From the NCBI GenBank assembly GCA_045105815.1, contig JBGCDX010000039.1, positions 1-60,797 of the forward strand: 60,797 bases of DNA, read 5' to 3'. Below, piece after piece: positions 3,452-59,865 of this stretch (its first letter is position 1; every line of letters starts with the position of its first letter). Source of the stretch: Gammaproteobacteria bacterium. GTDB lineage: Bacteria > Pseudomonadota > Gammaproteobacteria > UBA4575. Under the pieces are notes generated by a model. The model made no database searches and was not told the DNA's origin. It saw nothing but the letters and a program-made list of their open reading frames with translations. The translations under genes were made by a program, and so were the position numbers.

Positions 3452-3478
3452 TTATCGGCTTCATCAATAACTACTTTA
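3452..3478 (-). promoter_or_regulatory. sigma-28 (FliA)-type promoter facing the GGDEF-EAL gene
   Basis: Minus strand reads TAAA-GTAGTTATTGATGAA-GCCGATAA, an exact TAAA-N15-GCCGATAA match. It lies about 210 nt upstream of the ATG at 3240, with no convincing ORF between. Confidence 0.6.
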
Positions 3479-4533: not shown

Positions 4534-5268
4534 CTAGTTTTTATTTTCTAACCATTCGCTCAATCTTGCTCGTAACATTACTAAAGCTTTACCATGTATT
4601 TGACAAACACGTGATTCACTTACTTCTAAAAGTGCACCTATTTCACGCAAATTCATTTCTTCTTCATAATAAAGTGACATCACTAATCTTTCCCGCTCTG
4701 GCAATTGATTAATTGTAGAAGTTAATTCTGAATGAAATTTTTCATCTATATATTCTTTATCAGGATCTGAGTCAGAACTCATTTCCATTTTATAGTCGGT
4801 TGAATCTTCACTTTCATCAATGCTATAAATTTGAGCTACAGATGAATCTCGTAAAATTTTATTATATTCATTTAGTTCAACGCCCATCTCCTGAGCAATT
4901 TCTGTGTCTGTGGCACTTGATAATGTCCGATTTTCTACTTTCCGTATAGCTTCCATCATATCTCTAGACTTACGGTGGACAGATCTAGGAGTCCAATCAC
5001 CGCGTCTAATCTCATCTAACATTGCTCCACGAATTCGTATCCCTGCATAAGTTTCAAAACTAGCACCTTGAGTAGGATTAAAATTTCTAGCTGCTTCCAA
5101 TAAACCAACCATACCTGATTGAATTAAGTCATCTACTAAAACAGTATCAGGCAACCTTCCTTTTAAATGATATGCAATTCTTTTTACTAGAGAAGCATGC
5201 TGAGTAACAACACCTTCAATATCTAGATTTTGAACTGCCGTGTAACTAGCTGTTGCTGCATCATTCAT
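4534..5268 (-). CDS. fliA: flagellar sigma factor FliA (sigma-28)
   Basis: 244 aa. Sigma-70-family region 2 (DLIQSGMVGLLEAARNF) and region 4.2 HTH (LREIGALLEVSESRVCQIH). Located directly after flhG. Confidence 0.93.
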   Translation of the reverse strand: MNDAATASYTAVQNLDIEGVVTQHASLVKRIAYHLKGRLPDTVLVDDLIQSGMVGLLEAARNFNPTQGASFETYAGIRIRGAMLDEIRRGDWTPRSVHRKSRDMMEAIRKVENRTLSSATDTEIAQEMGVELNEYNKILRDSSVAQIYSIDESEDSTDYKMEMSSDSDPDKEYIDEKFHSELTSTINQLPERERLVMSLYYEEEMNLREIGALLEVSESRVCQIHGKALVMLRARLSEWLENKN

Positions 5269-29007: not shown

Positions 29008-30354
29008 TTACTGAAGTAGTGACAATACGTTCTGAGGCAAAGAATTTGCCTGAGAAACAATTGCTAGACCTGCCTGTTGTAGAATCTGCGAACGGGTTAA
29101 GTTTGCAGTTTCTGCAGCAAAGTCAGCGTCTTGAATACGCGAACGTGCAGCAGTCAAGTTCTCAACCGTAATCTGAAGGTTAGAAATAGTGGATTCAAAA
29201 CGTGTTTGAACCGAACCTAATTCAGATCGCAAGGTATTAATTTGTTGCAATGCCGCATCAACCGTTAATAACGTAGCGTTAGAATCTGCTTGAGTCAAAA
29301 TGCTAATGCCGTTTGCGGTTTGGTCTGCACCACCCGCACCCACTGCATTACCACTTAGCACTGTTGGTGCAGTACCACCCACTACCGCTGGAGTACCCAC
29401 CTCAGATGAAAGTGTAATACCGGCCTGAACCGTTTGTGCAGCACCACCTAATCCCACGCCATTATCAATTTCAATGGTAGAACCGTTAGTGTTACTTAAC
29501 ACAATCGCTCCAGTGGTACCTGAAGCAGTAACACCAGTTTGTGCTGAGAAATTGTTAATGGTATCAAGATCCGTAGCATCACCCGCAAGCGTCAATGAAA
29601 CACCATTAATATTTGCAGCGCCCGCAGCGTTAACCAATGGTCCAGTAGTAACCGTAGTATTAACCTGAGCTGAAACACCAGAAGTAGCTGTCACATTATT
29701 AATAGCATTGGCAAGCTGTGTAGTGGTTGCTCCTGCAGCCAAGCCAGAAAAATCCACTGCAACACCTTGTACAGTTAAATCATTTGCTGCCACGGAAGCA
29801 TCAACTTGAGCCTGCTCAATAGATCCACTTACAGAAACGTTCGCACCCAAAGTAGAACCACGTGCATCTACACCATCTACGCTAATAGTCTGGTTTTGAT
29901 TTGCACCAACCTGGAATACTAATGTACTTGCAGTACCATCCAGAATGTTTTGACCGTTAAATTGTGTGCTGTTTGAAATACGATTCACTTCAGCAATTAA
30001 CTGCTGCACTTCATTATTAAGTGCTTGGCGGTCAGTAGATGAGTTAGTATCGTTAGCAGACTGTACGGCTAGCTCACGAACACGCTGTAATGCATCGGTT
30101 GCCGTTGACAACGCGCCTTCAGCGGTTTGTGAAAACGAAATACCATCATTTGAGTTACGAATAGCTTGGTTCAGACCACGAATTTGTGAAGTAAATCGTT
30201 CTGCAATCGCTAGACCGGCAGCATCATCACTTGCACTGTTAATTCGCAAACCTGAAGACAAACGCTCCAATGAGGTTTGTAACGAACCTTGCGTTGTATT
30301 TAAGTTTCGTTGAGCATTCAACGAAAACAAGTTTGTGTTAATAATTTGAGGCAT
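29008..30354 (-). CDS. fliC: flagellin
   Basis: 448 aa. N-terminal INTNLFSLNAQRNLN...LSSGLRINSASDDAAGLAI and C-terminal ...ILQQAGLAIVSQANSLPQNVLSLLQ. Confidence 0.97.
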   Translation of the reverse strand: MPQIINTNLFSLNAQRNLNTTQGSLQTSLERLSSGLRINSASDDAAGLAIAERFTSQIRGLNQAIRNSNDGISFSQTAEGALSTATDALQRVRELAVQSANDTNSSTDRQALNNEVQQLIAEVNRISNSTQFNGQNILDGTASTLVFQVGANQNQTISVDGVDARGSTLGANVSVSGSIEQAQVDASVAANDLTVQGVAVDFSGLAAGATTTQLANAINNVTATSGVSAQVNTTVTTGPLVNAAGAANINGVSLTLAGDATDLDTINNFSAQTGVTASGTTGAIVLSNTNGSTIEIDNGVGLGGAAQTVQAGITLSSEVGTPAVVGGTAPTVLSGNAVGAGGADQTANGISILTQADSNATLLTVDAALQQINTLRSELGSVQTRFESTISNLQITVENLTAARSRIQDADFAAETANLTRSQILQQAGLAIVSQANSLPQNVLSLLQ

Positions 30355-30452: not shown

Positions 30453-30479
30453 TTATCGGCGTGTGATTTAAATCCTTTA
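30453..30479 (-). promoter_or_regulatory. sigma-28 promoter of flagellin gene
   Basis: Minus strand reads TAAA-GGATTTAAATCACAC-GCCGATAA, an exact consensus match, about 100 nt upstream of the fliC ATG. Confidence 0.8.
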
Positions 30480-42005: not shown

Positions 42006-42032
42006 TAAAGTTAATATAAAAACAGCCGATAA
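42006..42032 (+). promoter_or_regulatory. sigma-28 promoter of flgMN
   Basis: TAAA-GTTAATATAAAAACA-GCCGATAA, an exact consensus match, 30 nt upstream of the flgM ATG. Confidence 0.8.
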
Positions 42033-42061: not shown

Positions 42062-42370
42062 ATGACAGACAAAATTAACAATATAAGTGGGCCGATAAAC
42101 GGTAGCAACTTACAAAACACTTCTAAGGGTGCGAGCAATACTAATTCAAAGGTTAGTGGAAATGAATCCGCTAATGTCGCTAGCTCGGGCAAAGTCGACA
42201 TTTCTTCCGCCCAAACCCTAGATAAGATCAGAGAAAGCTTGGCATCGGAGCCAGTTATTGATCGACAGAAAGTCGAGACAGTGAAACAAGCGTTACAAGA
42301 TGGAACTTACAATATAAATTCGGAGAATATCGCGACCAAGCTTATTGAGATCGAACAACTCTTGAAGTAG
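42062..42370 (+). CDS. flgM: anti-sigma-28 factor FlgM
   Basis: 102 aa. C-terminal VETVKQALQDGTYNINSENIATKLIE. Confidence 0.9.
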   Translation: MTDKINNISGPINGSNLQNTSKGASNTNSKVSGNESANVASSGKVDISSAQTLDKIRESLASEPVIDRQKVETVKQALQDGTYNINSENIATKLIEIEQLLK

Positions 42371-42966: not shown

Positions 42967-43013
42967 TTTACATTTACATGTAATATCTAAATTTAGTTTA
43001 CATTTACAGGTAA
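42967..43013 (+). repeat. two 17-bp direct repeats (TTTACATTTACAkGTAA) 30 bp apart, upstream of the degenerate GGDEF gene
   Basis: 42967-42983 tttacatttacatgtaa and 42997-43013 tttacatttacaggtaa. Each repeat is itself a TTTACA doublet. Confidence 0.7.
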
Positions 43014-43299
43014 CTCTTGCCGCAAATAGTATATTTGTAAAAATATTTACTTAATAATGTGTTTCACATCACACGCATTATGTTAACTCTATTCATAAAT
43101 TAAACCGAAACTAAACATAGTTAACATAACGAATACATAGTCATATATTTTATAACTAATATAAATTTTATTTGAACTGATTAACATTAGCATTAGCTAA
43201 TCTTCCACATAATGTTTTAAGCAGATGGTTAAGTAAGTGATATAGAGGTGTCATTTACCTGCATAAGTACGTAAGAACATTATTCTAAGGAGAGAACTT

Positions 43300-44229
43300 A
43301 TGAATAGCTCTAGTGTTGAAAGATTCACCACTAGCTCTAATCATGCGCTAGAAATTGCAACTGCAATAACAGCTAATAAGCCGATTAATCGATCTATTAC
43401 TGCGTTAGTATTAAAGCTACAAACCACATTAAATATAAATCAGATCATTGAAACGTTCTTTGAGTCCCTTAGAGCAGAAATGAACTTATGTGGTATCGAG
43501 TATGAGTATCCATTACTTTATACACACATCCATCATGGTAGAAAAACTAATTGCTCATGCAGTTATCTTTTAGATGTAGATAATGACACATGGGGCAATA
43601 TAACAATCTATAGCGATGTTGATTTAACAGAAGATGAAAAAAATTACTTAGATGAATTTGTCTCAGTAATAATATTTCCTTTGCGCAATGCTATCCAATA
43701 TGAAAATGCCTTAACTGTATCATCAAGTGAATCGTATATAGGCCTACCTAATTGGGGTCTAATGGAAGGACAAATAACTAGGGAAGCAAAACTAGCACTT
43801 AGAGAGAAGAAACCTTTAAGCCTAGTTCTACTAGATATTGACCGTTTTATGACATTGAAAGATAAAAATGGGAAATTATTTGGTGACTTTATTATTCGTC
43901 ATGTGTACGAAACCATTCAGAAAACTTTAAGGGATACAGATATTTTAAATAGATTTGGATATGACCAATTCTCTTTAATCTTAAGCAACACTCAAGCACA
44001 AGATGCAAATATGATTGCGAATAGAATTAGATTAGCTATATCTAATCATGAACTTGAAAATAGTGAAGCAAATAAAAATGTACGCACCACAGTGAGTGTA
44101 GGTGTTACAGAGTTAAATTCAGACGATTCAGTAGAGTCTTTGTACGCAAGAGCATACAATGCATTAAAACTGGCTAAAAATTCAGGAAGAAATATAGTTA
44201 AAGTAGCTGATGGAAAATTTTTACGTTAA
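43300..44229 (+). CDS. GAF-like/degenerate GGDEF protein (GYDQF; RxxD I-site retained)
   Basis: 309 aa. C-terminal GGDEF fold (LVLLDIDRFMTLKDKNG ... SVGVTEL) with RDTD-ILNRF-GYDQF in place of RxxD-x5-GG(D/E)EF. Strong RBS AAGGAG. Confidence 0.8.
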   Translation: MNSSSVERFTTSSNHALEIATAITANKPINRSITALVLKLQTTLNINQIIETFFESLRAEMNLCGIEYEYPLLYTHIHHGRKTNCSCSYLLDVDNDTWGNITIYSDVDLTEDEKNYLDEFVSVIIFPLRNAIQYENALTVSSSESYIGLPNWGLMEGQITREAKLALREKKPLSLVLLDIDRFMTLKDKNGKLFGDFIIRHVYETIQKTLRDTDILNRFGYDQFSLILSNTQAQDANMIANRIRLAISNHELENSEANKNVRTTVSVGVTELNSDDSVESLYARAYNALKLAKNSGRNIVKVADGKFLR

Positions 44230-44232
44230 CAC

Positions 44233-45672
44233 TTATTCAGCTACATAAATATTAACTCGATTACGTCCATCTTCTTTTGCGGCATATAATGCTTTATCTG
44301 CTCGCTCAAATATAGATTGAGCGGTGTCTTTATGGTGGATATTAGAAATTCCACAAGAAACTGTTATTTTTACCTGCTTGCCTTTGACCATAAATACAGT
44401 ATTGGAAACCTCAATTCTTATATGATCTGCAAATTCCTTTGATAGCTCTACTGTTAAATCTGGCACTAACATTGCGAACTCTTCGCCACCAAATCTTGCT
44501 AAAAAATAATCTTTTTTAAGCAATTTACTTAATTTCTCAGAAACTGTTTTGAGTACTTTATCTCCAACAACATGGCCATATTGATCATTAAATTTTTTGA
44601 AATGATCAATATCCCATATCAACAATGAAAAATTATCATAACTCTCTATTGTTGAAATAACTTCAGATATTTTTTCATTATATGCTTGTCGATTATATAA
44701 ACCCGTAAGAGGATCATGCAATGCATGCTCTTTTTCCAGTTGCACGCGATCTCTTAATTCTTGCGCTTCTTTCTTAAGCTCATTAACTTGATTAACAAGG
44801 ACTTTTACATTCTCATTAACTCGTGTCTCTTGAACTTTAACAACTTGCCTTTCTTCTTCAACAATTTCTTGCAATGCATCCAATTGGACCTTAACTATGT
44901 TTTTCAATGACACTAAGTCATTTTCAGAACTAATATTGTTATTGATAAGTGTAACTGTATTGCTCATTCGCTCATTCAGCTCGCCTTGAAGCTTAATATC
45001 TGATGCTTGTTCTTCAGCGACATTATGTAATTTATCTCCAATACGACTAATTTGTGCTCCAATATTAAACAAGAAGTTTTCCAATTCTTCTTTATCGGAA
45101 TACGTGTCCTGGTATACAATATAAAACAACTCATAGATACCTTGTAAACTAGAATTTAAATCAGCAACTGATCTTATATTCTCGCATTTCTTTCTCAATA
45201 ATTTACTTTTATCATGATAGTTTTTTGAGAATTTGAATTTTTTAATAATCTCTAATGGCAGTCCAAAAACATTGTCTTGCTGCTCAATTACATATTTATT
45301 ACTTACTTTTTTTACTACATTTACTATCGAAAATAGAACATCATTAGCCTCTGACAAATCAGTTATCTGACTTGCCATATTTTTAACCGAGCCAAATGCA
45401 TCAGAATTATAAAATATTGATTGTGTAGCATTGATCATATTGACCAATGATTTTGACATATCTCTTACATCTTCATCTCTATCATCAATATCAGCCTCAT
45501 AGGATTCAAGCTCGGATTCAGACTCAGGCATAGTCTCAGTAACATTAGACTCTTGGTTTTCAGCCATGGATTCACCGTTTGCATATAATTTTTTAATAAA
45601 TGCAGCAGGTACCGAAAGAAGACCAGAAGACTTACTTTCAAGTTCTTTATTATCAGAATCAGATGAAACCAT
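44233..45672 (-). CDS. diguanylate cyclase (coiled-coil N-terminus, GGEEF, no I-site)
   Basis: 479 aa. LTGLYNRQAY, IDHFKKFNDQYGH, RFGGEEFAML. Position -9/-6 relative to GG is K/Y, so there is no RxxD. Confidence 0.88.
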   Translation of the reverse strand: MVSSDSDNKELESKSSGLLSVPAAFIKKLYANGESMAENQESNVTETMPESESELESYEADIDDRDEDVRDMSKSLVNMINATQSIFYNSDAFGSVKNMASQITDLSEANDVLFSIVNVVKKVSNKYVIEQQDNVFGLPLEIIKKFKFSKNYHDKSKLLRKKCENIRSVADLNSSLQGIYELFYIVYQDTYSDKEELENFLFNIGAQISRIGDKLHNVAEEQASDIKLQGELNERMSNTVTLINNNISSENDLVSLKNIVKVQLDALQEIVEEERQVVKVQETRVNENVKVLVNQVNELKKEAQELRDRVQLEKEHALHDPLTGLYNRQAYNEKISEVISTIESYDNFSLLIWDIDHFKKFNDQYGHVVGDKVLKTVSEKLSKLLKKDYFLARFGGEEFAMLVPDLTVELSKEFADHIRIEVSNTVFMVKGKQVKITVSCGISNIHHKDTAQSIFERADKALYAAKEDGRNRVNIYVAE

Positions 45673-45680
45673 AATATTAC

Positions 45681-47327
45681 TTAATCAATTGTCCCATTAA
45701 TTTTCTTAAGAGGAATATTTATCACTGTATTTTCTAAATCTTCATCAGAAGACTGTTTTTTATCAGGCCAAGGACGTGTTTCTAAGTTCCTACGCTCATT
45801 AAAAGGCATCACTTTTTCTATTGGATACATAACATTAAGGGGTACAGATAAACCATTAGATTGCACTACACGCGCATGACGCCTATCTAATTCACGCGGA
45901 TGCTTGACACCACATGAGTGCGCAATCATTCCAACTTCATGAACAATATTTTTAACATAATTTGCAACTCTTTCTGACTTTACTTTTGGATTTAAGCCAC
46001 GTTGCAATCTTTTATTATGTGTAGTAATTCCTGTAGGGCAAGTATCTTTATTACATTGCAAAGCTTGAATACATCCTAATGCAAACATGAAACCACGCGC
46101 AGAAGTAACAAAATTAGCTCCCAAACATAATGCCCAAGCTACATCAGCAGGAGTTACTAACTTACCTGATGAAATCACTTTCACTCTGCCATACAAATTA
46201 TATTGTTTAAGTTTATTAACTAAAATAGGTAAACTTTCATTCAAAGGCAAGCCCATATCATCGAGCAATGGCATAGGTGCAGCACCTGTTCCTCCATCTG
46301 CACTATCAACGGTTATAAAATCTGGTGCATATAACTTCCCACGCTGACCAATCAAGGTAAATAAATTATCCAACCATTCTTCAGAACCAATAACACTCTT
46401 TATTCCAACAGGTTTCCCAGTGATCTCACGAATGTATCCAATCATTTCTAATAAATCTTCATCATTACTAATTTCTGGATGACGATTAGGGCTTATTGAA
46501 TCCTCACCTTGACGAACACCGCGTATACCAGCAACTTCTTTAGTTACTTTTGCACCTGGTAGTATGCCTCCTTTTCCAGGCTTACCCCCTTGACTAAGTT
46601 TTATTTCAAACATTTTTACTTGGTCGTAGTTAGCTATTTCAATCAACTTAGATTCACTTAATCTTCCACTTATTGGGTCCCTTACACCATACTTTGCAGT
46701 ACCAATTTGAAATACAATGTCACAACCACTTCTCAAGTGATATTTTGAAAGACCACCTTCACCTGTGTTTAACCAACAACCTGAAATTTTTGCTCCTTCT
46801 GCAAGTGCCAGCACAGCAGGTTTAGAAATTGCACCATAACTCATGGCTGATATGTTGAATATTGATTTTGTTGTAAATGGAACTCTGCAATCTGGCCCAA
46901 TGGTTTGTTCCGACACAGGCACTGCATCTTCACCCAAAGTTGGGTATGGGCAATTTGAAAACAATACGGTTCCTACTTTTTTCAAATCTCGTGTTGAACC
47001 AAAAGCAATGGTATTGCTAATATCTTTTGCAGCACGATACACCCATGATCGTTGCGCACGATTAAATGGCATCTCTTCACGGTCCATAGAAAAGAAATAT
47101 TGTCTGAAAAATTCACCGACATGTTCAAAAAAATATCGAAAGCGACCGATAACAGGAAAGTTTCGTCTTACTGCATGTTTTGACTGAGTGATATCGCTTA
47201 TATATAAAATTGGCAAGCAAACCAATAAAGTCAGAAATAATATAGAAAATAGATCTTGTGATATTTCAAGACCATAGCTTATCCAGGTTTTACCCAGTCG
47301 TAATATTTCATCCATGTTGATATTCAT
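45681..47327 (-). CDS. membrane-anchored FMN-binding glutamate-synthase-family (GltB domain 2-like) protein
   Basis: 548 aa. N-terminal TM. KLSQGGKPGKGGILPG, DFITVDSADGGTGAAP and SGKLVTPADVAWALCLGANF are typical of the Glu_synthase FMN domain. Confidence 0.8.
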   Translation of the reverse strand: MNINMDEILRLGKTWISYGLEISQDLFSILFLTLLVCLPILYISDITQSKHAVRRNFPVIGRFRYFFEHVGEFFRQYFFSMDREEMPFNRAQRSWVYRAAKDISNTIAFGSTRDLKKVGTVLFSNCPYPTLGEDAVPVSEQTIGPDCRVPFTTKSIFNISAMSYGAISKPAVLALAEGAKISGCWLNTGEGGLSKYHLRSGCDIVFQIGTAKYGVRDPISGRLSESKLIEIANYDQVKMFEIKLSQGGKPGKGGILPGAKVTKEVAGIRGVRQGEDSISPNRHPEISNDEDLLEMIGYIREITGKPVGIKSVIGSEEWLDNLFTLIGQRGKLYAPDFITVDSADGGTGAAPMPLLDDMGLPLNESLPILVNKLKQYNLYGRVKVISSGKLVTPADVAWALCLGANFVTSARGFMFALGCIQALQCNKDTCPTGITTHNKRLQRGLNPKVKSERVANYVKNIVHEVGMIAHSCGVKHPRELDRRHARVVQSNGLSVPLNVMYPIEKVMPFNERRNLETRPWPDKKQSSDEDLENTVINIPLKKINGTID

Positions 47328-47352
47328 ATCGATACTGTTTCAGATACCTTAT

Positions 47353-47379
47353 ATATCGACTGTAGATGAATATTCTTTA
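47353..47379 (-). promoter_or_regulatory. sigma-28-type promoter in front of the FMN-enzyme/cyclase pair
   Basis: Minus strand reads TAAA-GAATATTCATCTACA-GTCGATAT (N15), 26 nt upstream of the ATG at 47327. Confidence 0.5.
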
Positions 47380-47433
47380 ATGAAAAAAATTATAAGTTAT
47401 TGAATTCAATGGCAACTTGAGCGATCAAATACA

Positions 47434-48042
47434 TCAAGCAAAATTCTTTTCTCGAATGAGCTTGATCTCTTTACCACGTACATGAGCATGAATTGCCTCT
47501 CTATCTTCAGCATTGATATGCGTGAACTCAAGCCCTATTGTAGATTGGCCCTCATACTGCTCAGCTTGCTCACAGCGCACTATTTTTCCATACGCTAATA
47601 TGTAGTTGGAAATTTGTGAAAGCTGCAGCCTTAATTCTACATATGACCCCATATCCAAAGGATCATCATAGCTAAAGCTAATACCACTAGCGCTTATATT
47701 AACTTCATGCCAATTTAAATCAGGGATCATTGAGCATCCTGAAAACTGTCTTCTAGCTAAAGTATTAATTTTATCGTCTAGCAAAGTTAAATACTTGGCC
47801 ACCTCAGGATAACGCCTACGCACTAATGCGAACTGGTCTGTTAACACTTTAGAAGTGTCAGTAAAATTATTCAATAATTGCAATTCTGAATTATTCTCAG
47901 GATATTTTTTTAATACTTCTTTTATTTGATCATCTGGAATTAAACGCAATGATAATAAAATATTATCATCTATTCTAAACGCACTCCGATTTTCAATTTC
48001 AGCATGCATGTCTTTTTCTTGTGATAGATTTATGTCATCCAT
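47434..48042 (-). CDS. PilZ-domain protein with widely separated RxxxR and NxSxxG motifs
   Basis: 202 aa. RSAFR at residues 19-23 and NISASG at 115-120, followed by beta-barrel-like SFSYDDPLDMGSYVELRLQL...GKIVRCE...IGLEFTHI. The start lies 18 nt after the motB stop. Confidence 0.75.
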   Translation of the reverse strand: MDDINLSQEKDMHAEIENRSAFRIDDNILLSLRLIPDDQIKEVLKKYPENNSELQLLNNFTDTSKVLTDQFALVRRRYPEVAKYLTLLDDKINTLARRQFSGCSMIPDLNWHEVNISASGISFSYDDPLDMGSYVELRLQLSQISNYILAYGKIVRCEQAEQYEGQSTIGLEFTHINAEDREAIHAHVRGKEIKLIREKNFA

Positions 48043-48060
48043 ATCAATTGACCATGAGAT

Positions 48061-48954
48061 TTAATTATTTTTTGAAGCACTATTTTGTGCATCATCATCG
48101 TATTCATAAAATAAATGTTTATCTCCCAATATTGAAATTTCAACACGTCTGTTTTTAGAGCGACTATCTTCTGTGTAATTAGTAAAAATAGGTTTAGTGT
48201 CACCATAAGCTCGAATTTGCAGACGATCTTCATGAATATCTTCCTTAGCCTCTAAATGATGCACTACCGCAGCAGCACGTGCTGCTGACAGCACCCAATT
48301 TGACGGGAACCTTGATGTATTTATTGGCCGATTATCTGTATGACCAGAAACTATAATATTTCCATCCACTTCTTTTAGTGCTGAAGCTATTTTTTTCAAT
48401 AATAAGGCAAATGCACCATCAATATGGTCATCACCTGATGAAAACGTGCCCCGCTCTCTAATACGAATAATGATTTCACGATCTGTCCAATCAACCTCAA
48501 CGGTCCCCGTATCAATTTCATTTTTTAATACTTCAGTAATTCTTTCTGCTTCTTCTTGCATTCTTTTTACTGCTGCATTATAAATTTCTTTGGCAATCTG
48601 TTTTTTATCTACATCTTCTCCACCACTTGAAAAATCCAAGTTAGCTTTGCTCTCATCCGTAGTTTGTTGCCGCATTATTTTCAATAATGTCTCATTATCA
48701 GGTTTACCTGGACTGAATTCAGATGTCACCACACTTGTGCCTTTAGGCAGCTCATTTGCAGGTACATCTCGTTGCACACCAAAAGCTCTAGATAGAGAGC
48801 CAGATAATTCTTTAAATTTATTAACATCCATTTCAGAGAATGATAGAAGCAGCACAAAGAAACACATTAGCAATGACATTAAGTCTGCAAATGTTGCCAT
48901 CCATGCAGGGGAACCGGAAGATTCTGCTGCTTTTGCTGGAGGTGCATCAGACAT
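48061..48954 (-). CDS. motB: stator protein MotB/PomB family
   Basis: 297 aa. N-terminal TM with conserved Asp (WMATFADLMSLLMCFFV). C-terminal OmpA-like GHTDNRPI...SNWVLSAARAAAV. Confidence 0.92.
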   Translation of the reverse strand: MSDAPPAKAAESSGSPAWMATFADLMSLLMCFFVLLLSFSEMDVNKFKELSGSLSRAFGVQRDVPANELPKGTSVVTSEFSPGKPDNETLLKIMRQQTTDESKANLDFSSGGEDVDKKQIAKEIYNAAVKRMQEEAERITEVLKNEIDTGTVEVDWTDREIIIRIRERGTFSSGDDHIDGAFALLLKKIASALKEVDGNIIVSGHTDNRPINTSRFPSNWVLSAARAAAVVHHLEAKEDIHEDRLQIRAYGDTKPIFTNYTEDSRSKNRRVEISILGDKHLFYEYDDDAQNSASKNN

Positions 48955-48967
48955 AACTTAACCTTAA

Positions 48968-49750
48968 TTATGCAGCTTCTTTTTCTTGACTCGATTCACC
49001 TACTTGATCACGCTTACTATTTGGTAAATAAGTGGCAAGTATCTGCTCAACAACTCTTGGATTAGTTCCTGCCTGAATTGCTGATACTGATTCAAGTATT
49101 AAATCTTTGCTAAGTCGCTCTTCCATTGCAATCTTCTTTAACTTATCCGCTAATGGAAGCGCTACTGCATTCGCAATAACTGCTCCATAAAGAGTAGTTA
49201 ATAATGCAACTGCCATTGCAGGGCCAATAGACTTAGGGTCATCCATGTTAGACAACATCTGCACTAATCCAATAAGCGTGCCGATCATACCCATCGCAGG
49301 CGCTGCATCACCAATAGATTTAAACATTTCTCTACCCGTTTCATGACGCTCAATAGAAAGATTAATATCTTTACCCAACATTTTTTGAACGACCTCAGTT
49401 GGATGTCCGTCAATACATAAATTGATGCCTTGCTCTAAAAATGGATGTCCGATTTCTTTACCCTCTAGTGCAAGTACACCTTCTTTTCTGGCCACATCAG
49501 CAAGTGCAACCGCTTCTTCAATAAGTTTTGTTAGGCTTACCGCTTTATGAAGCAATGTAGTTAAAACAAGCTTAAATGAACCAAAAAAGTCTCCTAAAGA
49601 AATTCGCGTTAAGGTAGCAGCAAAAGTGCCCCCAATAACAACAGCCAGTGATGGTACATTCATGAAGGTCCCAGCTGACCCCCCTAAGACGATCGCTAAC
49701 ACAATCACAGCCATAGCCCCCACCAAGCCTATTAGAGTGGCTAAATCCAT
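48968..49750 (-). CDS. motA: stator protein MotA/PomA family (closest in look to PomA/MotC type)
   Basis: 260 aa. MDLATLIGLVG..., APAMGMIGTLIGLVQMLSNMDDPKSIGPAMAVALLTTLYGA. Confidence 0.93.
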   Translation of the reverse strand: MDLATLIGLVGAMAVIVLAIVLGGSAGTFMNVPSLAVVIGGTFAATLTRISLGDFFGSFKLVLTTLLHKAVSLTKLIEEAVALADVARKEGVLALEGKEIGHPFLEQGINLCIDGHPTEVVQKMLGKDINLSIERHETGREMFKSIGDAAPAMGMIGTLIGLVQMLSNMDDPKSIGPAMAVALLTTLYGAVIANAVALPLADKLKKIAMEERLSKDLILESVSAIQAGTNPRVVEQILATYLPNSKRDQVGESSQEKEAA

Positions 49751-49857
49751 TTACAAACGCTCCTTATTTAACTAATTTTCAACCAGTACATTTTTATAAC
49801 TTACTGTTTTATATATGTTTTTATTTGCTGCGAAGATAGACTCTTGCGACATAGTTA

Positions 49858-49884
49858 GTAACGGCCAAAACATATAAATATTTA
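49858..49884 (-). promoter_or_regulatory. sigma-28-type promoter of the motAB-pilZ operon (variant -10 GCCGTTAC)
   Basis: Minus strand reads TAAA-TATTTATATGTTTTG-GCCGTTAC (N15). The same variant -10 octamer recurs with the same spacing at 59839-59865. Confidence 0.5.
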
Positions 49885-49964
49885 GCTATTAGCCAATAAT
49901 TAGGTGCTTTACTGACGGGTGAACTTAGTAGTATTTGAAATCCAAGGAATTTTCAAAAAATGCT

Positions 49965-49990
49965 TAAAAATCAAGTAAATATGCCGATAC
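49965..49990 (+). promoter_or_regulatory. sigma-28-type promoter of the CheY-like gene
   Basis: TAAA-AATCAAGTAAATAT-GCCGATAC (N14), 58 nt upstream of the ATG at 50049. Divergent from the motA promoter. Confidence 0.45.
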
Positions 49991-50048
49991 AAGCTCATGA
50001 AGTAGCAACAAAATTGATGTGTATCTAGATTAAAATGAGCCTGTTTGT

Positions 50049-50408
50049 ATGAAAATCCTAATTGTTGATGATAGTCAGGCAATGCGCAAAATCATCAAGT
50101 GGACAATTAAATTAGCTGATATGAATGCTGATGAGTTTTTTGAAGCCTCTTGTAGTGATGATGCTCTTTTAATATCAGAAACCAAAAAACTAGATTTAAT
50201 AATTACAGATTGGAATATGCCAGAAATGGGTGGCTTAGCATTACTTAAAGCGTTAAGAGATTCTCAAAATATGGTTAGATTCGGATTTGTTGTTACACAA
50301 TCGTCAACAAATATTTATAACTTAGCAAAAGATGCGGGCGCAAACTTCATCATATCTAATCCAAGCTCTTCCAATACATTTAAAGCTCAAGTAAACCAAA
50401 CATTATAA
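50049..50408 (+). CDS. single-domain CheY-like receiver with Asn at the conserved Lys (K109-equivalent) position
   Basis: 119 aa. DD (7-8), ITDWNMPEMGG phospho-acceptor context and VVTQ Thr are present, but FIISNP replaces the YVVKP-type motif. Confidence 0.85.
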   Translation: MKILIVDDSQAMRKIIKWTIKLADMNADEFFEASCSDDALLISETKKLDLIITDWNMPEMGGLALLKALRDSQNMVRFGFVVTQSSTNIYNLAKDAGANFIISNPSSSNTFKAQVNQTL

Positions 50409-50622
50409 ATATGTAATCACAAAAAGTTAGCTTCTAACCAATCTCAGTAAAATTATAATTTTATAAGTAAGCTTGAAACGTCAAAAATTTGACTACTTTA
50501 AAAATTTATAATTGTTATCACTAGTCTGCTCAGTTTTTCTGGTATCTTCTTTACTAAATTATTAAACGTCGAATATTTGGCATTTAATATTATTCTTAGA
50601 TTCATATTATAAAACTGCACAC

Positions 50623-51600
50623 ATGTCACAAAATTTCTCTAGCAAAAGAAACATTATCTCGTTTTTATCTATTGCTGCAATGTTAATACTACTAGTTTAC
50701 ATATCTTCAAACCCATATGTGAGCAAACAAGAAACACTTAGAATTGGAATTACCGAATGGCCAGGTTTTGAATATTTATTTATTGCTAAAAAACAAGGAT
50801 TTTTTAAAAAAGCCGGTCTTAATATTGAGCTTGTAGAACTTAGCTCACTAGCAGAAGTTCGCCGTGCTTTTGAAAGAGGGAAAGTAGATGGAATGGCCGC
50901 AACACTAGTAGAAGTATTGGAGGCTTATAAATACTCTGGGCAAATTGCCCAACCTATAGCAGTAATTGATTACTCAAATGGTGCTGATGAAATCCTAGGC
51001 AATAAAAACTTGAAAAATATTAATGATCTTAAAGGCAAAAAAATTGGTGTTGAAGCAGGAAGCATGAGCGCCTATCTTGTTAGTCGGGCATTAGAAATCA
51101 ATAACATAGACTATTCAGATGTAATCATTATCCCTATGAGTTTACTCAAACTACCTAAAGCATTAAAAACTGGAAAAGTGGATGCGATAACATCATACCC
51201 CCCTGTTTCAATAGCTATCAAAAAACAAATTGAAATAAACGTCTTATTTGATAGTTCACTCATCCCACGGAAATTAATAGATGTAATTGCGATCAATAAA
51301 AATGTACTCAAGCACAATCCGAAGTTGAGACAATCGTTCTTACAAGCATGGGGGGAAACATTAAGATATGCAGAAGAAAATCCTGAATCTTCGTATCAAA
51401 CTTTAACTGAGCGACTTCATATATCAATACAAGAATTTAAGAACTCAATGTCCTTGATAAACTTGGTTGGTATCGACGAACAAGATCAATATTTTAACCA
51501 AGACATTATAAAAGATAACTTAGTTAAAACGGGTGATATTGTTTTTAAACACTTAGATACTTCTAAAGTAGATTATTCAGAATTTATATACGCTAATTAA
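50623..51600 (+). CDS. membrane-anchored NMT1/SsuA-like substrate-binding protein
   Basis: 325 aa. N-terminal anchor. RIGITEWPGFEYLFIAKKQGFFKKAGLNIELVE is typical of nitrate/sulfonate/bicarbonate-type SBPs. Confidence 0.7.
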   Translation: MSQNFSSKRNIISFLSIAAMLILLVYISSNPYVSKQETLRIGITEWPGFEYLFIAKKQGFFKKAGLNIELVELSSLAEVRRAFERGKVDGMAATLVEVLEAYKYSGQIAQPIAVIDYSNGADEILGNKNLKNINDLKGKKIGVEAGSMSAYLVSRALEINNIDYSDVIIIPMSLLKLPKALKTGKVDAITSYPPVSIAIKKQIEINVLFDSSLIPRKLIDVIAINKNVLKHNPKLRQSFLQAWGETLRYAEENPESSYQTLTERLHISIQEFKNSMSLINLVGIDEQDQYFNQDIIKDNLVKTGDIVFKHLDTSKVDYSEFIYAN

Positions 51601-51623: not shown

Positions 51624-53978
51624 ATGAGCATAACTTTTGAAAAATATAAAACATCTTCACAGAAGCGAATTATTTTATCGTTTTTATTAGTGTTTTTTAT
51701 CTCAATACTCACTATTTGCATTCTAATGTATAAAATATTTAGCAATAATCTTTCTGAAAATTTACATACCCGCGCACTAGAAGTGATCGATATTGTAGAT
51801 TATATGGCTCAGACCTCAGGAGAGTCCCCAGAATTAATTAGAGGCATAAATACTTTAGCAGCCAATCGTGATATCAAGCTTATTATAGTAAGAATTGACG
51901 AGCCACCCGTTGTGATTGCATCAAATAAAGCAGCATTAATTGGCTTACCTACAAATAAAATATTTTCCAATGACACAAGCAGTCAATCATTCAGCTTTGA
52001 TTCCAACAATGATGAATACACGGCCATATCATCGATATGGTTAGAGAATAAATTTAGCAATGGACAATTCACAAAAGCACACATTGGCGTGGTATTTAAT
52101 ACTTACAAAACTCGCATCTTGCTTCAGGAACAGATACTACAGACTGCAATTTATTTAATACTCACAACAATATTTGCGATTGGATTAGTATATTTCTTGA
52201 CTAATAAATATATATTTCAACCTTTAGAAATTATAAATTCAACCTTAAATAAAAATGATATAAATAAAGAATTTTCACCAATTGCATTTTCTACAAATGA
52301 TGAGATTGGATCTGTAGCTAAAACCCTCAATCAATTATTTACAGATATATATGAATCGAAAAGAACACTGCGTGAAAACACCGAACGGTATGATCTTGCA
52401 CTACAGGGCACTAAAGTTGGCTTGGTAGATTGGAACATTGCTACCAATGATCTTTATTACTCATCTAGCTTAATGCAAGTATTAGGTATAGCCAAAAATA
52501 TTATCAAACCTAGTATTGGTTGGTTTGAAGAACGCACACACCCAGATGATAGAGAAACTGCCCAAGCTTCACTTATTTCTCACCTTAAATTTAATACTGA
52601 ATATGATGTTGAAGGTAGATTGCGTCACGAGAATGGTGATTATATTTGGATGCGAGTACGCGGCCAAGCTGTACGCGATGACGAAGGAAAAGCTATTCGC
52701 ATGGTCGGGTATTATGTAGATATATCTAATCGTAAAGCAAATGAACACTTAATGAATTCTCTATACTTACTTAGCGCTGATGCAACGTTGTCACTCAACA
52801 AAAAGATTAATTGCATACTCGAAGAAGGCGTTAATTATTTAGGTTTAGACTGTGGAATTATTTGCAATGTAAATGAAAACTGTTTATCGGTTAAATATTT
52901 GAAATCACCAAAAAAATACCAAATCTATGCAGGTACAGTTTTTGCTCTAAGTGATACATTTTGCTCTCATACTGTGAAAGAAAATGACATGTTAGCGATA
53001 CATGATATAAAAAACTCAGCCCTAAACTACTTGCCTGAACATACGGAATCTGGAATTAATTGTTACATAGGCACACCCTTATATGTACATGGGAGAATTT
53101 ATGGGACAGTTAGTTTTTCTGATTATAAAACTAAATTAAGGCCTTTTACTGAGCAAGAAAAGTCATTTATTAGATTAGTAGCCCAATGGATTGGCAATGA
53201 AATGATGAGGTCACAGTACATAGACTACTTGCATGAAACTGAAAGTAGATTGGAAGATGCAGTTGAAGAGCTTACTAACACCAACTCTGAGCTAGAAAGC
53301 TTTACATATGTTGCGTCACATGACCTTCAAGAGCCTTTACGAATGATTACTAACTTTACGGGTCTTTTAGAAGCCAACTACAGCAAAAATTTAGACGGTA
53401 CAGCCCTGGATTATTTGAAAATATTATCCAAATCTGCCAGCCAAATGCGTATTTTAATTAAGGGCTTATTGGACTATGCACACACTAATAGAGAAAACGA
53501 AAAAATTGAAAACATTGACCTAAATCATATATTAAAAAACATATATACCAATCTTGAAAAGCAAATTTGTGAAGCTAAACCTGAAATAATTGTTAACAAT
53601 CTACCCTCCATTCAAGCCAATAAAGCAAGTATAATAAGCTTGTTACAAAATTTAGTTAGTAATGCTATTAAATTTCAAACAGAAGGAAGCAAGGCTGTAA
53701 TTGAAGTCAATGCTTATCAACAAAAAGATTCGTGCGTAATCAGTATTTCAGACAACGGCATTGGCATTGAAACAGAATACCAAGAGAAGGTATTTGAACC
53801 ATTTAAACGACTGCATGCTAAGAATGAATATATAGGCACCGGTATTGGATTAGCAGTATGCAAAAAAATTGTTACTAGAATGGGTGGAACGATGTGGGTT
53901 GAATCTGAAAAAGGCACTGGAAGTACTTTTTTTGTTTCAATTCCTAACCTAATAACTCAAACAGGAAAAGCAGCATGA
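51624..53978 (+). CDS. sensor histidine kinase (periplasmic domain-HAMP-PAS-GAF-HisKA-HATPase)
   Basis: 784 aa. Two TM segments. PAS (RHENGDYIWMRVRGQAVRDDEGK), H-box FTYVASHDLQEPLRMI, G-box GTGIGLAVCKKIV. Confidence 0.88.
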   Translation: MSITFEKYKTSSQKRIILSFLLVFFISILTICILMYKIFSNNLSENLHTRALEVIDIVDYMAQTSGESPELIRGINTLAANRDIKLIIVRIDEPPVVIASNKAALIGLPTNKIFSNDTSSQSFSFDSNNDEYTAISSIWLENKFSNGQFTKAHIGVVFNTYKTRILLQEQILQTAIYLILTTIFAIGLVYFLTNKYIFQPLEIINSTLNKNDINKEFSPIAFSTNDEIGSVAKTLNQLFTDIYESKRTLRENTERYDLALQGTKVGLVDWNIATNDLYYSSSLMQVLGIAKNIIKPSIGWFEERTHPDDRETAQASLISHLKFNTEYDVEGRLRHENGDYIWMRVRGQAVRDDEGKAIRMVGYYVDISNRKANEHLMNSLYLLSADATLSLNKKINCILEEGVNYLGLDCGIICNVNENCLSVKYLKSPKKYQIYAGTVFALSDTFCSHTVKENDMLAIHDIKNSALNYLPEHTESGINCYIGTPLYVHGRIYGTVSFSDYKTKLRPFTEQEKSFIRLVAQWIGNEMMRSQYIDYLHETESRLEDAVEELTNTNSELESFTYVASHDLQEPLRMITNFTGLLEANYSKNLDGTALDYLKILSKSASQMRILIKGLLDYAHTNRENEKIENIDLNHILKNIYTNLEKQICEAKPEIIVNNLPSIQANKASIISLLQNLVSNAIKFQTEGSKAVIEVNAYQQKDSCVISISDNGIGIETEYQEKVFEPFKRLHAKNEYIGTGIGLAVCKKIVTRMGGTMWVESEKGTGSTFFVSIPNLITQTGKAA

Positions 53979-54445: not shown

Positions 54446-55801
54446 TTAGCGTTCCTGGAATGCATTCTGAAAACCACGATAAATAGGCTTCAATAGATAA
54501 TCTAATACTGACTTTTCCCCAGTTTTAATATCAGCTTGTACAGTCATTCCAGGAATAATTCGATATTTATTCGTTTCATCTCCAATATAACTTTTATCTA
54601 AAGCAATTGTTGCCTGAAAATAAGGAATATGTTGTTCATCTAAAAAAGTCGACGCACTTATCTTTTGTACTTTACCCATTATAGTACCAAATCGATGAGG
54701 ATCATAACTATTAACTTTAACTTCAGCCTTCTGACCTAAATTTATATGCCCAATATCGGATGTTGTAACTTTTGATTCAACCACTAAAACATCATCACCA
54801 GGTATAATTTCCATTATTACTTGACCTGGCTTAATCACACTTTGAATAGAATTCACCACTAAGCCCTTCACAATACCAGAAACAGGTGCAGTAATATCCA
54901 GTCTACTCACACGGTCCTGAAGCTTAATAATATTCTTATCTAACTCAGCCATTTCGCCCATCACCTTTCCTATATCTTTCTTGATAGACTCATAAAACTT
55001 ATTTTCAACATCTACAACTGATTGATACGCTTCTTCTTTTGCTTCATTTGAGACTAAAATGTTAGACAAAGTTTGCTGATATTGTGTCTCAGTTTCTGCT
55101 AAATTTACTTTCCTATCCAGATACTCTGCATTTGATACTAAACCTTGTTCAACCAATCCCTTGCGCATATTCGCCTGTTGCCTAAGAACGTTAGTTTCAC
55201 GTTTTAGATACTTGGCTTTAATCTTCTCTCTCGTTAGCTCTTCTTCACGCTGTTTTATCTTTGTTTGCGCTAAATCAATCTGTGATATATAACTTTTTAA
55301 CTGTGCTTTATAAATATTAACTTCGCTTGCTACCAAATCCGCGTATTCATCTTTATATTTATCAAAGTTTGGCTCACCTTCTTTTAATATTGCATGCAAC
55401 CTAATCAACTGAAGATCTAGTACAGTATGACGTGCTTCTATTTGTTGCAAATCTGACTCAGTAGAGGTCGGCGCTATACGTACTAATACATCACCTTCAT
55501 TAACTATTTCACCATCATTTACGTATATTTCTTTTATAATTCCACCTTCTAAATGTTGAACCACGTGATTATGTCCTGTTGGCACAACCTCACCTTGAGT
55601 TACTGCCACTTCATTTACCGGAGTTACGTAAGCCCAGACAACCATAGCAACGCATAAAAAAGCAATTGTCATGATCACGATACTAACGACACCGGGTGCG
55701 TCTGACTCTTCTAATTGAATAGACTGTGCTATAAAACGTGCACGAGCTCTAGGAACTTCTGACTTAACCTTATCGGATAACGATAAATCTTCCTCTATCA
55801 T
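54446..55801 (-). CDS. HlyD-family type I secretion membrane fusion protein
   Basis: 451 aa. N-terminal TM, long coiled coil, C-terminal beta-barrel. 4-nt overlap with the upstream ABC gene. Confidence 0.88.
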   Translation of the reverse strand: MIEEDLSLSDKVKSEVPRARARFIAQSIQLEESDAPGVVSIVIMTIAFLCVAMVVWAYVTPVNEVAVTQGEVVPTGHNHVVQHLEGGIIKEIYVNDGEIVNEGDVLVRIAPTSTESDLQQIEARHTVLDLQLIRLHAILKEGEPNFDKYKDEYADLVASEVNIYKAQLKSYISQIDLAQTKIKQREEELTREKIKAKYLKRETNVLRQQANMRKGLVEQGLVSNAEYLDRKVNLAETETQYQQTLSNILVSNEAKEEAYQSVVDVENKFYESIKKDIGKVMGEMAELDKNIIKLQDRVSRLDITAPVSGIVKGLVVNSIQSVIKPGQVIMEIIPGDDVLVVESKVTTSDIGHINLGQKAEVKVNSYDPHRFGTIMGKVQKISASTFLDEQHIPYFQATIALDKSYIGDETNKYRIIPGMTVQADIKTGEKSVLDYLLKPIYRGFQNAFQER

Positions 55802-57987
55802 TTCTTCATCTCCGTTAAATACTTGATTGCTTCACCTGGTGTACCCACATGAGCGACCATTCCGTTAACCATTACGATTGCCTTATCCGCCAACCGTATA
55901 TGTGAAGGTCGATGACTCACCATTAAAATAGTTTGTTTGCCACGCATTGTTTCTAAATGATCCATCAAATTCTGATCCGTAATTTTATCTAAAGAAGTTC
56001 CTGGCTCATCCATTAAAAATATTGGCGCCTTTCTAACGTAAGAACGCGCTAAGCAAATACCATTGACAAGACCGGAAGGTAATCGAGATGTAGTGTGATC
56101 ACCCACTAAAGTATCAAAGCCTTTAGGAAGATCCTTAATCGCGGGCAATATACCGGCCTGCTCTGCAGCTACAATTAATTGCTTATCTGTTGCAAGCGGT
56201 TGATTTAAACGAATATTCTGCCCGATAGTTCCATAAAATAAGCTTGGCTTTTGAGGCATATACGCAATAACTCGACGTAAGTCAGTAGCATTCATCTGAC
56301 GCACATCAGTATCATCAATGGTTAATGAACCACCCTGAGCGCGATACATTCCTGCCACCAGCTTTAACACAGTAGATTTACCCGAACCATTGCCACCAAC
56401 TATGGCAACAAAATCACCTGGGTTGATTGCAAAAGTAGCGCCCACCAAAGCTGGGTCTTCATTCGGGGCATACCTGAAAGTAACGCGATCAAAGTTAATT
56501 TGGCCAGTGATTTTCGGCATAATCAAACCAGCTTTGTAGCTATTAGGTTCAGAAGGGACACGCATTAATTGATTCAATTGTTGAACGCTTTGTTTAATTT
56601 GATCGATTTGCAACATTGCCAAACAGACACCTTGCAATGGTGATAATACCCTCCAAATTAAAGCCATTACTGCAATAAGAGCACCAATCGTCATATCACC
56701 ATTCATAACTTTCAAAGTACCAAGTGCTAATACACATATACCAGCAATCGTCATTAGAGATTGAGCAACACTATTAATTAATGCATGGCTAGTTGAAGTC
56801 TTAAACGTCCGCGTCATCGCTTCACCAGATGCTTCTCGATATAATTCTTTCCAAGCACCTTCAGCTCCCAAAGCTTTAAGTTCACGCAATCCAGAAAATG
56901 TTTCCATTAACATTCGTTGTCTAGCTGAACGTGCATGACCTGCATGAACTAACTTTTTATTTAAACTAGGAAACCATAGCCATCCAAAAATTGTATATAT
57001 TCCTATCATCGCCACTGGCACTAGTGCAATACTTCCACCTAAGATTGTAAGCAAAACAATAAATAACAACACAAATGGCAGTTCCAAGAATAAAGTCGCA
57101 CTTGGACCTGAAAAGAAATCTCTAATCGATTCAAACTGTCGTAAACGAGATAACTGAGAAATAACAGTTGAACGCTCTGTTAGCGTAGGTGGTAATGACA
57201 TTATTTTTTTAAATGTCTCAACACCAATTATATAGTCCAATCGACCCGCTAATAGCCCTAATGTTTTTGACCTAACTAACCTAAATATTAACTCACAAGC
57301 AAGTGCTACAGAAATGCCTACCATAAGAAAAGGAATACTATGCGTTGATCTTGCACCAATTACATTATCGTACACAACCATTATAAAAAGTGGCACAAAC
57401 ATAGCGATAATATTTAACATAAATGTCATCGCTACTAAATGCTTTAATAGCTTACGAAATCTTTTTAGTACCTGAGAAAACCATTGCTCACTAGATTGCT
57501 CCAACCCAGTCATCGCATGCGTTGGATGCATATCAGTAAAGTAATATGCAGTGCCTTTTTCTTTTAGAATATTATCTGTAAAATACTTATTTTTATGTGC
57601 ATCAAAATAAGTAGCTGAATCCTCAGATTTTTCTTTTATTACATATACACCACCAGCATCTGACTCAAACAAACAAGGCAAAAGTGTTGGGCATATTTTC
57701 CCTATCGATGTACTTTTTTCATCACTTTCATAACCCAATGTTACTAACATGTTTCTCAAATCAACCAAATCAATTTGATTGGAAAAATGTGGGATCGATT
57801 CAATCAATTCTCGTTTATATGAGCGCCACCCTAACTCAGTAAGAATTGGCATTATGCAAGCAGCATAAGGTGAAAGCTCTGCTATTTTAGAGTACGTTTT
57901 ATTTCTAATAGCATTAGACAATCGCTCAGACATTGGCAAGCGTTCATCATCAGTTAATTTTTTAATATCTTCTATGGTTACACTCAT
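55798..57987 (-). CDS. T1SS ABC transporter with N-terminal C39-like domain; degenerate signature motif (LPSGL)
   Basis: 729 aa. Roughly 150-aa N-terminal domain, six-TM region, Walker A GGNGSGKST, Walker B IFLMDEPGTSLD, H-loop VSHRPS. LPSGLVNG replaces LSGGQRQ. Confidence 0.88.
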   Translation of the reverse strand: MSVTIEDIKKLTDDERLPMSERLSNAIRNKTYSKIAELSPYAACIMPILTELGWRSYKRELIESIPHFSNQIDLVDLRNMLVTLGYESDEKSTSIGKICPTLLPCLFESDAGGVYVIKEKSEDSATYFDAHKNKYFTDNILKEKGTAYYFTDMHPTHAMTGLEQSSEQWFSQVLKRFRKLLKHLVAMTFMLNIIAMFVPLFIMVVYDNVIGARSTHSIPFLMVGISVALACELIFRLVRSKTLGLLAGRLDYIIGVETFKKIMSLPPTLTERSTVISQLSRLRQFESIRDFFSGPSATLFLELPFVLLFIVLLTILGGSIALVPVAMIGIYTIFGWLWFPSLNKKLVHAGHARSARQRMLMETFSGLRELKALGAEGAWKELYREASGEAMTRTFKTSTSHALINSVAQSLMTIAGICVLALGTLKVMNGDMTIGALIAVMALIWRVLSPLQGVCLAMLQIDQIKQSVQQLNQLMRVPSEPNSYKAGLIMPKITGQINFDRVTFRYAPNEDPALVGATFAINPGDFVAIVGGNGSGKSTVLKLVAGMYRAQGGSLTIDDTDVRQMNATDLRRVIAYMPQKPSLFYGTIGQNIRLNQPLATDKQLIVAAEQAGILPAIKDLPKGFDTLVGDHTTSRLPSGLVNGICLARSYVRKAPIFLMDEPGTSLDKITDQNLMDHLETMRGKQTILMVSHRPSHIRLADKAIVMVNGMVAHVGTPGEAIKYLTEMKK

Positions 57988-57995
57988 TTTCTAAC

Positions 57996-59838: not shown

Positions 59839-59865
59839 GTAACGGCTAAAGAATGAAACTCTTTA
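59839..59865 (-). promoter_or_regulatory. sigma-28-type promoter in front of the T1SS ABC genes
   Basis: Minus strand reads TAAA-GAGTTTCATTCTTTA-GCCGTTAC (N15). The -10 octamer is identical to the motA candidate. About 90 nt upstream of the ATG at 59750. Confidence 0.45.

Follow-up and report, generated by a model that had tools for sequence, protein, structure and literature searches.

A stand-alone tPilZ protein encoded with a PomAB-type flagellar stator is a candidate c-di-GMP-responsive stator partner in Gammaproteobacteria

Why is a PilZ-domain gene carried in the operon of a flagellar stator, and what might its product do there? The question is raised by a 60,797-nucleotide (nt) stretch of DNA from a gammaproteobacterial metagenome-assembled genome (MAG), in which the minus strand carries, head to tail, a pomA-like gene, a pomB-like gene and a PilZ gene, as could be read directly (Table 1). 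The whole stretch is referred to as the window, and all coordinates are numbered on it. The reading that we favor, at a probability of roughly 0.6, is that the PilZ gene encodes a tPilZ protein that binds cyclic di-GMP (c-di-GMP) and docks as a tetramer under the PomA ring, which would make stator function c-di-GMP dependent. This reading draws on sequence comparison and on analogy with a stator partner from Campylobacter jejuni.

For classification of the PilZ gene product, profile searches, alignments and structural modeling were combined. The Pfam PilZ model matched residues 112-189 (44.7 bits), which is the distal part of the PilZ domain only. The first c-di-GMP motif, RxxxR, could be read as R19-S-A-F-R23 and is preceded by 18 residues; the second, NxSxxG, could be read as N115-I-S117-A-S-G120. 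Both motifs are intact, and 91 residues separate R23 from N115. The sequence D89-D-K91-I-N93 fits the interlock motif as published, [DENH]x[KR]h[DEN]. Such features are those of the tPilZ class, with more than 3,000 members including XCC6012, PA2989, PlzB and Lpg1926, in which a barrel is combined with a two-helix insert of about 60 amino acids, the interlock motif and a stand-alone, single-copy gene (10.1101/814665; 10.1101/2020.02.11.943704). An AlphaFold2 monomer model built on a 58-sequence alignment (mean predicted local distance difference test score, 90.5) gave a six-stranded barrel (strands 24-35, 110-116, 120-125, 134-140, 147-159 and 167-176) that is split after strand 1 by inserted helices (47-77 and 79-101, with a further helix at 37-45) and is followed by a C-terminal helix (178-201, EDREAIHAHVRGKEIKLIREK) rich in Arg, Lys and His. 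When the model was compared with the PDB using Foldseek, the top seven matches were all chains of Xanthomonas campestris XCC6012 (3PH1/3RQA; 188-196 columns, TM-score 0.5-0.59), and the next-best match was MotI, aligned over the barrel only. A profile of the close homologues searched against PDB sequences returned chance matches only, so that the XCC6012 link was seen by fold alone.

The barrel with its charged C-terminal helix, the two-helix insert, the interlock motif and the stand-alone, single-copy gene were thus all found, and sequence and model together place the protein, whose c-di-GMP motifs are intact, with tPilZ proteins of the XCC6012/PA2989/FlgX type and not with those of the YcgR type. 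YcgR-type identity was rejected because a PilZN domain is missing, with only 18 residues ahead of RxxxR; no match to PilZN (YcgR_N) was obtained in the protein or anywhere in its genome. The 2.28-Mb MAG encodes four PilZ-domain proteins, among them one tPilZ copy and no YcgR-type (PilZN) protein, and tPilZ is, as judged from these gene contents, the only obvious motor-directed PilZ of this genome.

The breadth of the arrangement was then considered. Nine close relatives (L001-L009) all share the entire neighborhood including pomA-pomB-tPilZ, and the same three genes are found in a Methylohalobius MAG whose tPilZ is 32% identical. For a census of the class, 400 evenly drawn Gammaproteobacteria genomes from 320 genera were searched with a broad tPilZ alignment. 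The family was detected in 93 genomes (74 genera), with a single match in 90 of these carriers. Among the 30 best loci, 28 could be evaluated, and in 23 of them PomA and PomB lay directly 5' on the same strand, as identified by phmmer. In the remaining carriers, tPilZ coordinates were compared with those of MotB_plug matches, and in 33 further genomes tPilZ began 650-1,320 nt past the plug motif of a motB that runs in the same direction. The gene therefore stands directly after a PomB-type motB in 56 of the 93 carriers, from about 41 GTDB families. The linked MotB proteins all scored 63-75 bits against MotB_plug and were strongly similar to the PomB of the window; where a genome also held a MotB above 75 bits, the higher-scoring MotB was never the linked one. 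MotB was present in 91 of the 93 carriers versus 196 of the 400 genomes overall (odds ratio 87, Fisher p ~1e-31, phylogeny ignored), and two tPilZ genomes were without it. Among cultured bacteria, examples with the linked form are Thiogranum longum (WP_132971236.1) and Methylotuvimicrobium alcaliphilum 20Z and M. buryatense 5GB1C (WP_014148396.1 / WP_017839397.1), and Candidatus Thiodiazotropha symbionts also carry it. One genome (G354, contig C48 46944-48978, minus strand) has a tandem tPilZ pair directly after motB, an exception to the reported single-copy rule.

Ligand motifs were examined at increasing distance from the window protein. Both c-di-GMP motifs, together with D89, K91 and N93, were invariant in 19 close homologues (alignment A1). 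In 58 diverse homologues at about 25-30% identity (alignment A2), R19, R23, G120 and H187 were invariant, S117 was kept in at least 90%, and D26 and D180 were nearly invariant. The c-di-GMP motifs were retained in nearly all linked tPilZ copies read. Equivalents of the interlock motif (DQKLN, NEKLD, ESKID, DKKMD and ERKIE) were seen in 17 of 18 distant linked homologues read in the correct frame, locus L037 being without a match; several misframed high-GC loci were left out of the motif statistics but, by their phmmer matches, entered the linkage count. An HMMER search of the whole library returned 534 clusters at E <= 1e-10, nearly all of 190-210 amino acids and matched over their full length. 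From these motifs the protein is predicted to bind c-di-GMP through RxxxR and NxSxxG and, by analogy, it would form tetramers through a coiled coil of the inserted helices.

The initial annotation of this DNA had likened the PilZ protein to brake and clutch proteins of the YcgR, MotI and FlgZ kind and had treated its encoding beside the stator as an exception. Neither point held up: PilZN is missing, and the barrel is split by the two-helix insert of tPilZ, for which a place directly after motB is the usual one. Its further proposal, a dedicated c-di-GMP sensor for the stator, gained strength from the conserved gene order, with stator and c-di-GMP binding both remaining predictions.

Assignment of the stator itself was made from both subunits. 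The pomA-like product scored 344 bits against NF006527 (cut-off 341) and 94.6 bits against MotA_ExbB, and the pomB-like product 335 bits against NF006508 (cut-off 259). In translation, Asp24 of PomB sits in the transmembrane segment, within WMATFADLMSLL, and PomA residues R88, K89, E96 and E99 are present; we take these PomA residues and PomB Asp24 to correspond to the Vibrio numbering. A MotA_ExbB channel subunit is thus paired with a MotB_plug/OmpA subunit bearing a transmembrane Asp, and the stator is by sequence of the PomAB, sodium type. The pomA-like gene is the sole flagellar MotA of the genome, which accordingly has one flagellar stator.

Gene spacing was as expected of an operon. The pomA and pomB genes are separated by 13 nt, and an AAGGAG Shine-Dalgarno sequence ahead of the pomA ATG is unchanged in the relatives. 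The pomB stop codon (48063..48061) and the pilZ ATG (48042..48040) leave exactly 18 nt between them (48060..48043), and the terminator scan found no terminator-type hairpin there. One weak sigma-70-like match was located near the junction (48091..48064, 9/12 positions), and the region held fewer such matches than its shuffled versions (5 observed versus 12.8). An internal promoter for pilZ was judged unlikely, as the sole match is weak and lies in AT-rich DNA in a region below the shuffle expectation. No riboswitch or other RNA was detected in an Rfam scan of 43000..50700, the single match, to osmY (E 0.43), being far below threshold. We infer that pomA, pomB and tPilZ are co-transcribed and hence that tPilZ is produced alongside the stator.

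Table 1. Features of the stator locus and its downstream neighbors, numbered on the 60,797-nt window
Feature	Position	Strand	Basis
Predicted sigma-28 (FliA)-type promoter of pomA-pomB-tPilZ, TAAA-N15-GCCGTTAC	49858..49884	minus	Direct reading, conservation, genome enrichment
pomA-like gene, stator channel subunit, 260 amino acids	49750..48968	minus	NCBIfam PomA equivalog NF006527, Pfam MotA_ExbB
pomB-like gene, stator plug and peptidoglycan-anchor subunit, 297 amino acids	48954..48061	minus	Pfam MotB_plug and OmpA, NCBIfam NF006508
pomB-pilZ junction, 18 nt, terminator-free	48043..48060	minus	Direct reading, hairpin scan
tPilZ gene, 202 amino acids	47434..48042	minus	Pfam PilZ, alignments, AlphaFold2 model, Foldseek
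Second predicted sigma-28-type promoter 3' of pilZ (gap of 106 nt), TAAAG-N14-GTCGATAT	47353..47379	minus	Conservation
GltS-like flavin mononucleotide (FMN) protein	45681..47327	minus	Pfam Glu_synthase, 291 bits
Coiled-coil GGEEF diguanylate cyclase	44233..45672	minus	Pfam GGDEF, 146.9 bits; weak match to a diguanylate cyclase-associated coil
Degenerate GGDEF protein, 309 amino acids, convergent	43300-44229	plus	GYDQF active site; RDTD I-site five residues upstream

Expression of the operon appears to be tied to late flagellar genes. The sequence TAAA-N15-GCCGTTAC begins 134 nt 5' of the pomA ATG; its -10 box has six of eight matches to the sigma-28 (FliA) consensus TAAA-N15-GCCGATAA. In all nine related MAG loci both boxes are invariant and stand at the same position, and the spacer is variable. 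Genome-wide, TAAA-N15-GCCG[AT]TAN occurs in 13 copies against about 3.2 expected in 2.28 Mb, with five copies inside the window, including one at 30479, just 5' of the flagellin gene (29008..30354), and one at 42006, just 5' of flgM (42062..42370). FliA itself is encoded in the window (4534..5268). Because the boxes are invariant, the motif is enriched across the genome and it precedes classical late genes in a genome with fliA, the pomA motif lies beyond chance, and there is good comparative evidence that the site is a FliA-dependent late promoter. Two observations of the initial annotation, that motA follows a sigma-28-type promoter and that pilZ starts 18 nt after motB with no hairpin between, were borne out, the second to the nucleotide. 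On the opposite strand, a divergent sigma-28-like motif, TAAA-N14-GCCGATAC (49965-49990, plus strand), also has boxes invariant in the nine relatives and lies 58 nt before a gene for a single-domain CheY-like receiver (50049-50408), which is followed by genes for a periplasmic binding protein (50623-51600) and a PAS histidine kinase (51624-53978). With motifs on both strands 5' of pomA, two FliA-type promoters would stand back to back there.

The protein was next compared with PilZ proteins of known function. In Campylobacter jejuni, the FlgX protein makes a stable tPilZ tetramer beneath each MotA pentamer and is needed for the stator ring to assemble; it has no c-di-GMP motifs, and flgX is not adjacent to motAB (PMC11725899). 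FlgX and the window protein share the tPilZ architecture (barrel, two-helix insert and charged C-terminal helix), are stand-alone and single copy, and are associated with a MotA/PomA-MotB/PomB stator. They differ in that flgX lies between ubiA and flgW in a family confined to Campylobacterota, whereas the window gene is operonic with pomAB, and in that the window protein keeps all three motifs (RxxxR, NxSxxG and interlock). With these motifs, and with pomB and a GltS-like gene as neighbors, the protein falls outside the FlgX family, but it may work like FlgX. Because the protein is a tPilZ, FlgX, and not a brake or clutch, is its closest functional precedent.

XCC6012 is the best full-length fold match and has the same insert topology, with an interlock motif of DAKLD compared with DDKIN in the window protein; its c-di-GMP motifs are degenerate and it does not bind the ligand, whereas those of the window protein are intact. 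XCC6012 is the same protein as XC_2249 (XC2249), knockout of which lowers motility, and its authors remarked on flagellar-motion genes upstream of xcc6012 (PMC3131395). PA2989 of Pseudomonas aeruginosa and PlzB (VC1885) of Vibrio cholerae are, like the window protein, stand-alone gammaproteobacterial tPilZ proteins (10.1101/814665). PA2989 binds c-di-GMP with a dissociation constant of 188 nM (PMC11725899); it keeps RxxxR, but unlike in the window protein SEGG replaces [D/N]hSxxG. The c-di-GMP PilZ proteins that act on the motor, YcgR (E. coli), FlgZ (Pseudomonas), MotI/DgrA (B. subtilis), PlzD (Vibrio) and MotL (Shewanella), are monomeric or dimeric, have no helical insert and usually have their genes away from those of the stator. 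FlgZ and MotI target the stator proteins MotC and MotA, respectively. Two domains, PilZN and PilZ, make up YcgR, FlgZ, MotI and PlzD, and MotL consists of one plain PilZ, whereas the window protein is without PilZN.

On the favored reading, a FliA-dependent late flagellar operon, pomA-pomB-tPilZ, would encode the cell's only flagellar stator together with a stand-alone tPilZ. Made with the stator, tPilZ would tetramerize via its inserted helices, bind c-di-GMP via the intact RxxxR and NxSxxG and dock against the cytoplasmic side of the PomA pentamer, in the manner of FlgX, the c-di-GMP-blind tPilZ of Campylobacter jejuni. Binding of c-di-GMP would then alter stator stability, recruitment or torque. 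As to the sign of this effect, we lean only slightly toward the view that tPilZ with bound c-di-GMP would disable or release stators, whereas the apo protein would be neutral or supportive. The next transcription unit, encoding the GltS-like protein and the GGEEF cyclase and having its own sigma-28-type promoter, could supply c-di-GMP when stators are made.

Several points weigh against this reading. The locus belongs to an uncultured MAG. The analogy with FlgX is one of fold only, because FlgX is without the c-di-GMP motifs and flgX lies apart from motAB, and even to XCC6012 the identity is 14-15% with a TM-score of only 0.5-0.59. The genes for PA2989 and PlzB are not known to lie beside stator genes. 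About 40% of the family is found away from stator genes, beside unrelated genes, and the co-occurrence statistics carry no correction for phylogeny. A YcgR-type protein is also present in half of the linked genomes. Finally, neither this protein nor three distant homologues matched Pfam PilZ_2 (PF16823) at E values up to 10. That model is seeded on xanthomonad sequences, and we attribute the miss to a narrow, low-sensitivity model and not to exclusion from tPilZ; FlgX is likewise not recognized by sequence (PMC11725899).

The coexistence with YcgR-type proteins was followed further. PilZN proteins occur in 28 of the 56 linked genomes versus 66 of the 105 genomes that have a stator but no tPilZ (p = 0.13), and replacement of YcgR by tPilZ was rejected on these counts. 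Since a YcgR-type protein coexists in half of the linked genomes, tPilZ is not simply their brake, and the co-occurrence favors a role distinct from the classical one. It also suggests a different job, which could be that of a constitutive scaffold or chaperone that, like FlgX, serves stator stability with no regulatory part for c-di-GMP; operonic, near-stoichiometric expression would suit such a subunit better than a regulator. We nevertheless consider it unlikely, since R19, R23 and G120 are invariant and S117 nearly so across the 58 homologues and linked copies almost always keep the motifs, a retention that would be unexpected if the ligand were irrelevant; the non-binding tPilZ lineages FlgX and XCC6012 have lost their c-di-GMP motifs (10.1101/814665). 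Near-universal retention of RxxxR and SxxG therefore disfavors a purely structural, ligand-blind role.

A YcgR-like brake that targets the rotor (FliG/FliM) or proteins of chemotaxis, its gene merely co-regulated with late flagellar genes, is less probable still. Any late regulator of the motor could well be under sigma-28 control, PilZ effectors that target the rotor or CheR are known (YcgR and MapZ; PMC11725899), and some IMG records automatically name family members "c-di-GMP-binding flagellar brake protein YcgR." Against this stand the missing PilZN domain, a linkage that across the families surveyed is to PomB-type motB and not to fliG, fliM or che genes, and the tPilZ fold, of which the sole characterized motor member binds MotA. 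Least probable of all is an adjacency without motor meaning, in which tPilZ serves another c-di-GMP output such as the GltS-like/cyclase pair, pili or virulence-type traits: such traits have been proposed for PlzB and XCC6012, the unlinked part of the family has unrelated neighbors, and a cyclase gene and a degenerate GGDEF gene follow in this lineage, but the GltS-like/cyclase neighbors are lineage-confined where pomAB-tPilZ is far wider, and tPilZ is nearly absent from genomes without MotB (2/93).

Downstream of tPilZ, c-di-GMP genes continue in a lineage-specific manner. In the predicted gap promoter, L001-L009 all share TAAAG and the CGATA core of the -10 box, and in five relatives (L003 to L007) the -10 box is GCCGATAA or GCCGATAT. 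No terminator-like hairpin was found between pilZ and the GltS-like gene by scanning and folding (z-score 0.48). The cyclase gene follows the GltS-like gene after 8 nt, and in translation it has GGEEF and no RxxD I-site. Synteny of both genes extends to the nine close relatives; within the class-sample loci L011-L040, the two genes are confined to L019 and L020, of this genus. Their inclusion in the conserved unit was rejected because they are lineage-confined and have their own sigma-28-type promoter. As judged from sequence, the GGEEF cyclase is likely a local c-di-GMP source and appears to be a member of the late flagellar regulon, which suggests that cells turn on c-di-GMP synthesis as they make their stators. 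The convergent degenerate GGDEF gene, syntenic in all nine relatives, encodes what may be a c-di-GMP receptor instead of an enzyme.

Further sites of the same promoter type were recorded elsewhere. Several GGDEF/EAL genes cluster around the flagellar locus of the MAG, and a perfect sigma-28 consensus, TAAA-N15-GCCGATAA (3452-3478, minus strand), lies beside fliA, about 210 nt 5' of a PAS-GGDEF-EAL gene (1117-3240), whose c-di-GMP turnover product may thus be under FliA control. The pomA promoter variant TAAA-N15-GCCGTTAC recurs at 59839-59865 (minus strand), 5' of the gene at 57996-59750, which heads a type I secretion ABC transporter operon (54446-59750) with two LssB/HlyB-like ATPases and an HlyD adaptor; FliA-type control of type I secretion, if real, would be unusual. 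Outside the window, on contig C10 of the same genome (2856-3657, minus strand), a DnaJ (J-domain)-zinc-ribbon-PilZ protein is encoded with the perfect consensus TAAA-N15-GCCGATAA about 53 nt 5' of its ATG, and it may be a second PilZ protein of the flagellar regulon.

The tPilZ family and one stator-binding member of it were known already, and whether tPilZ proteins of phyla beyond Campylobacterota accompany stators had been left to be established (PMC11725899); for a family of more than 3,000 members, the known role was limited to Campylobacterota. In the searchable literature, from which subscription journals are mostly missing, no description of the PomAB linkage, of its breadth across families or of the ligand-motif retention was found beyond a 2011 remark on xcc6012. 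The window itself is one more member of the pomB-tPilZ pattern. Because 56 of the 93 carriers are linked, in about 41 families, and 91 are stator-bearing, the association would be general, and there is strong comparative evidence for this and for its being ligand controlled in these bacteria. We entertain more tentatively that tPilZ proteins as a class are cytoplasmic partners of PomAB/MotCD-type 5:2 stators, with pomA-pomB-tPilZ as the ancestral, c-di-GMP-sensing form and FlgX and XCC6012 as derived, ligand-blind versions; on that broader reading, c-di-GMP would reach many gammaproteobacterial motors by way of a near-stoichiometric tetramer under each stator, apart from the YcgR-type brake. 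The linkage itself points to a second path from c-di-GMP to the motor, other than those of YcgR, FlgZ and MotI.

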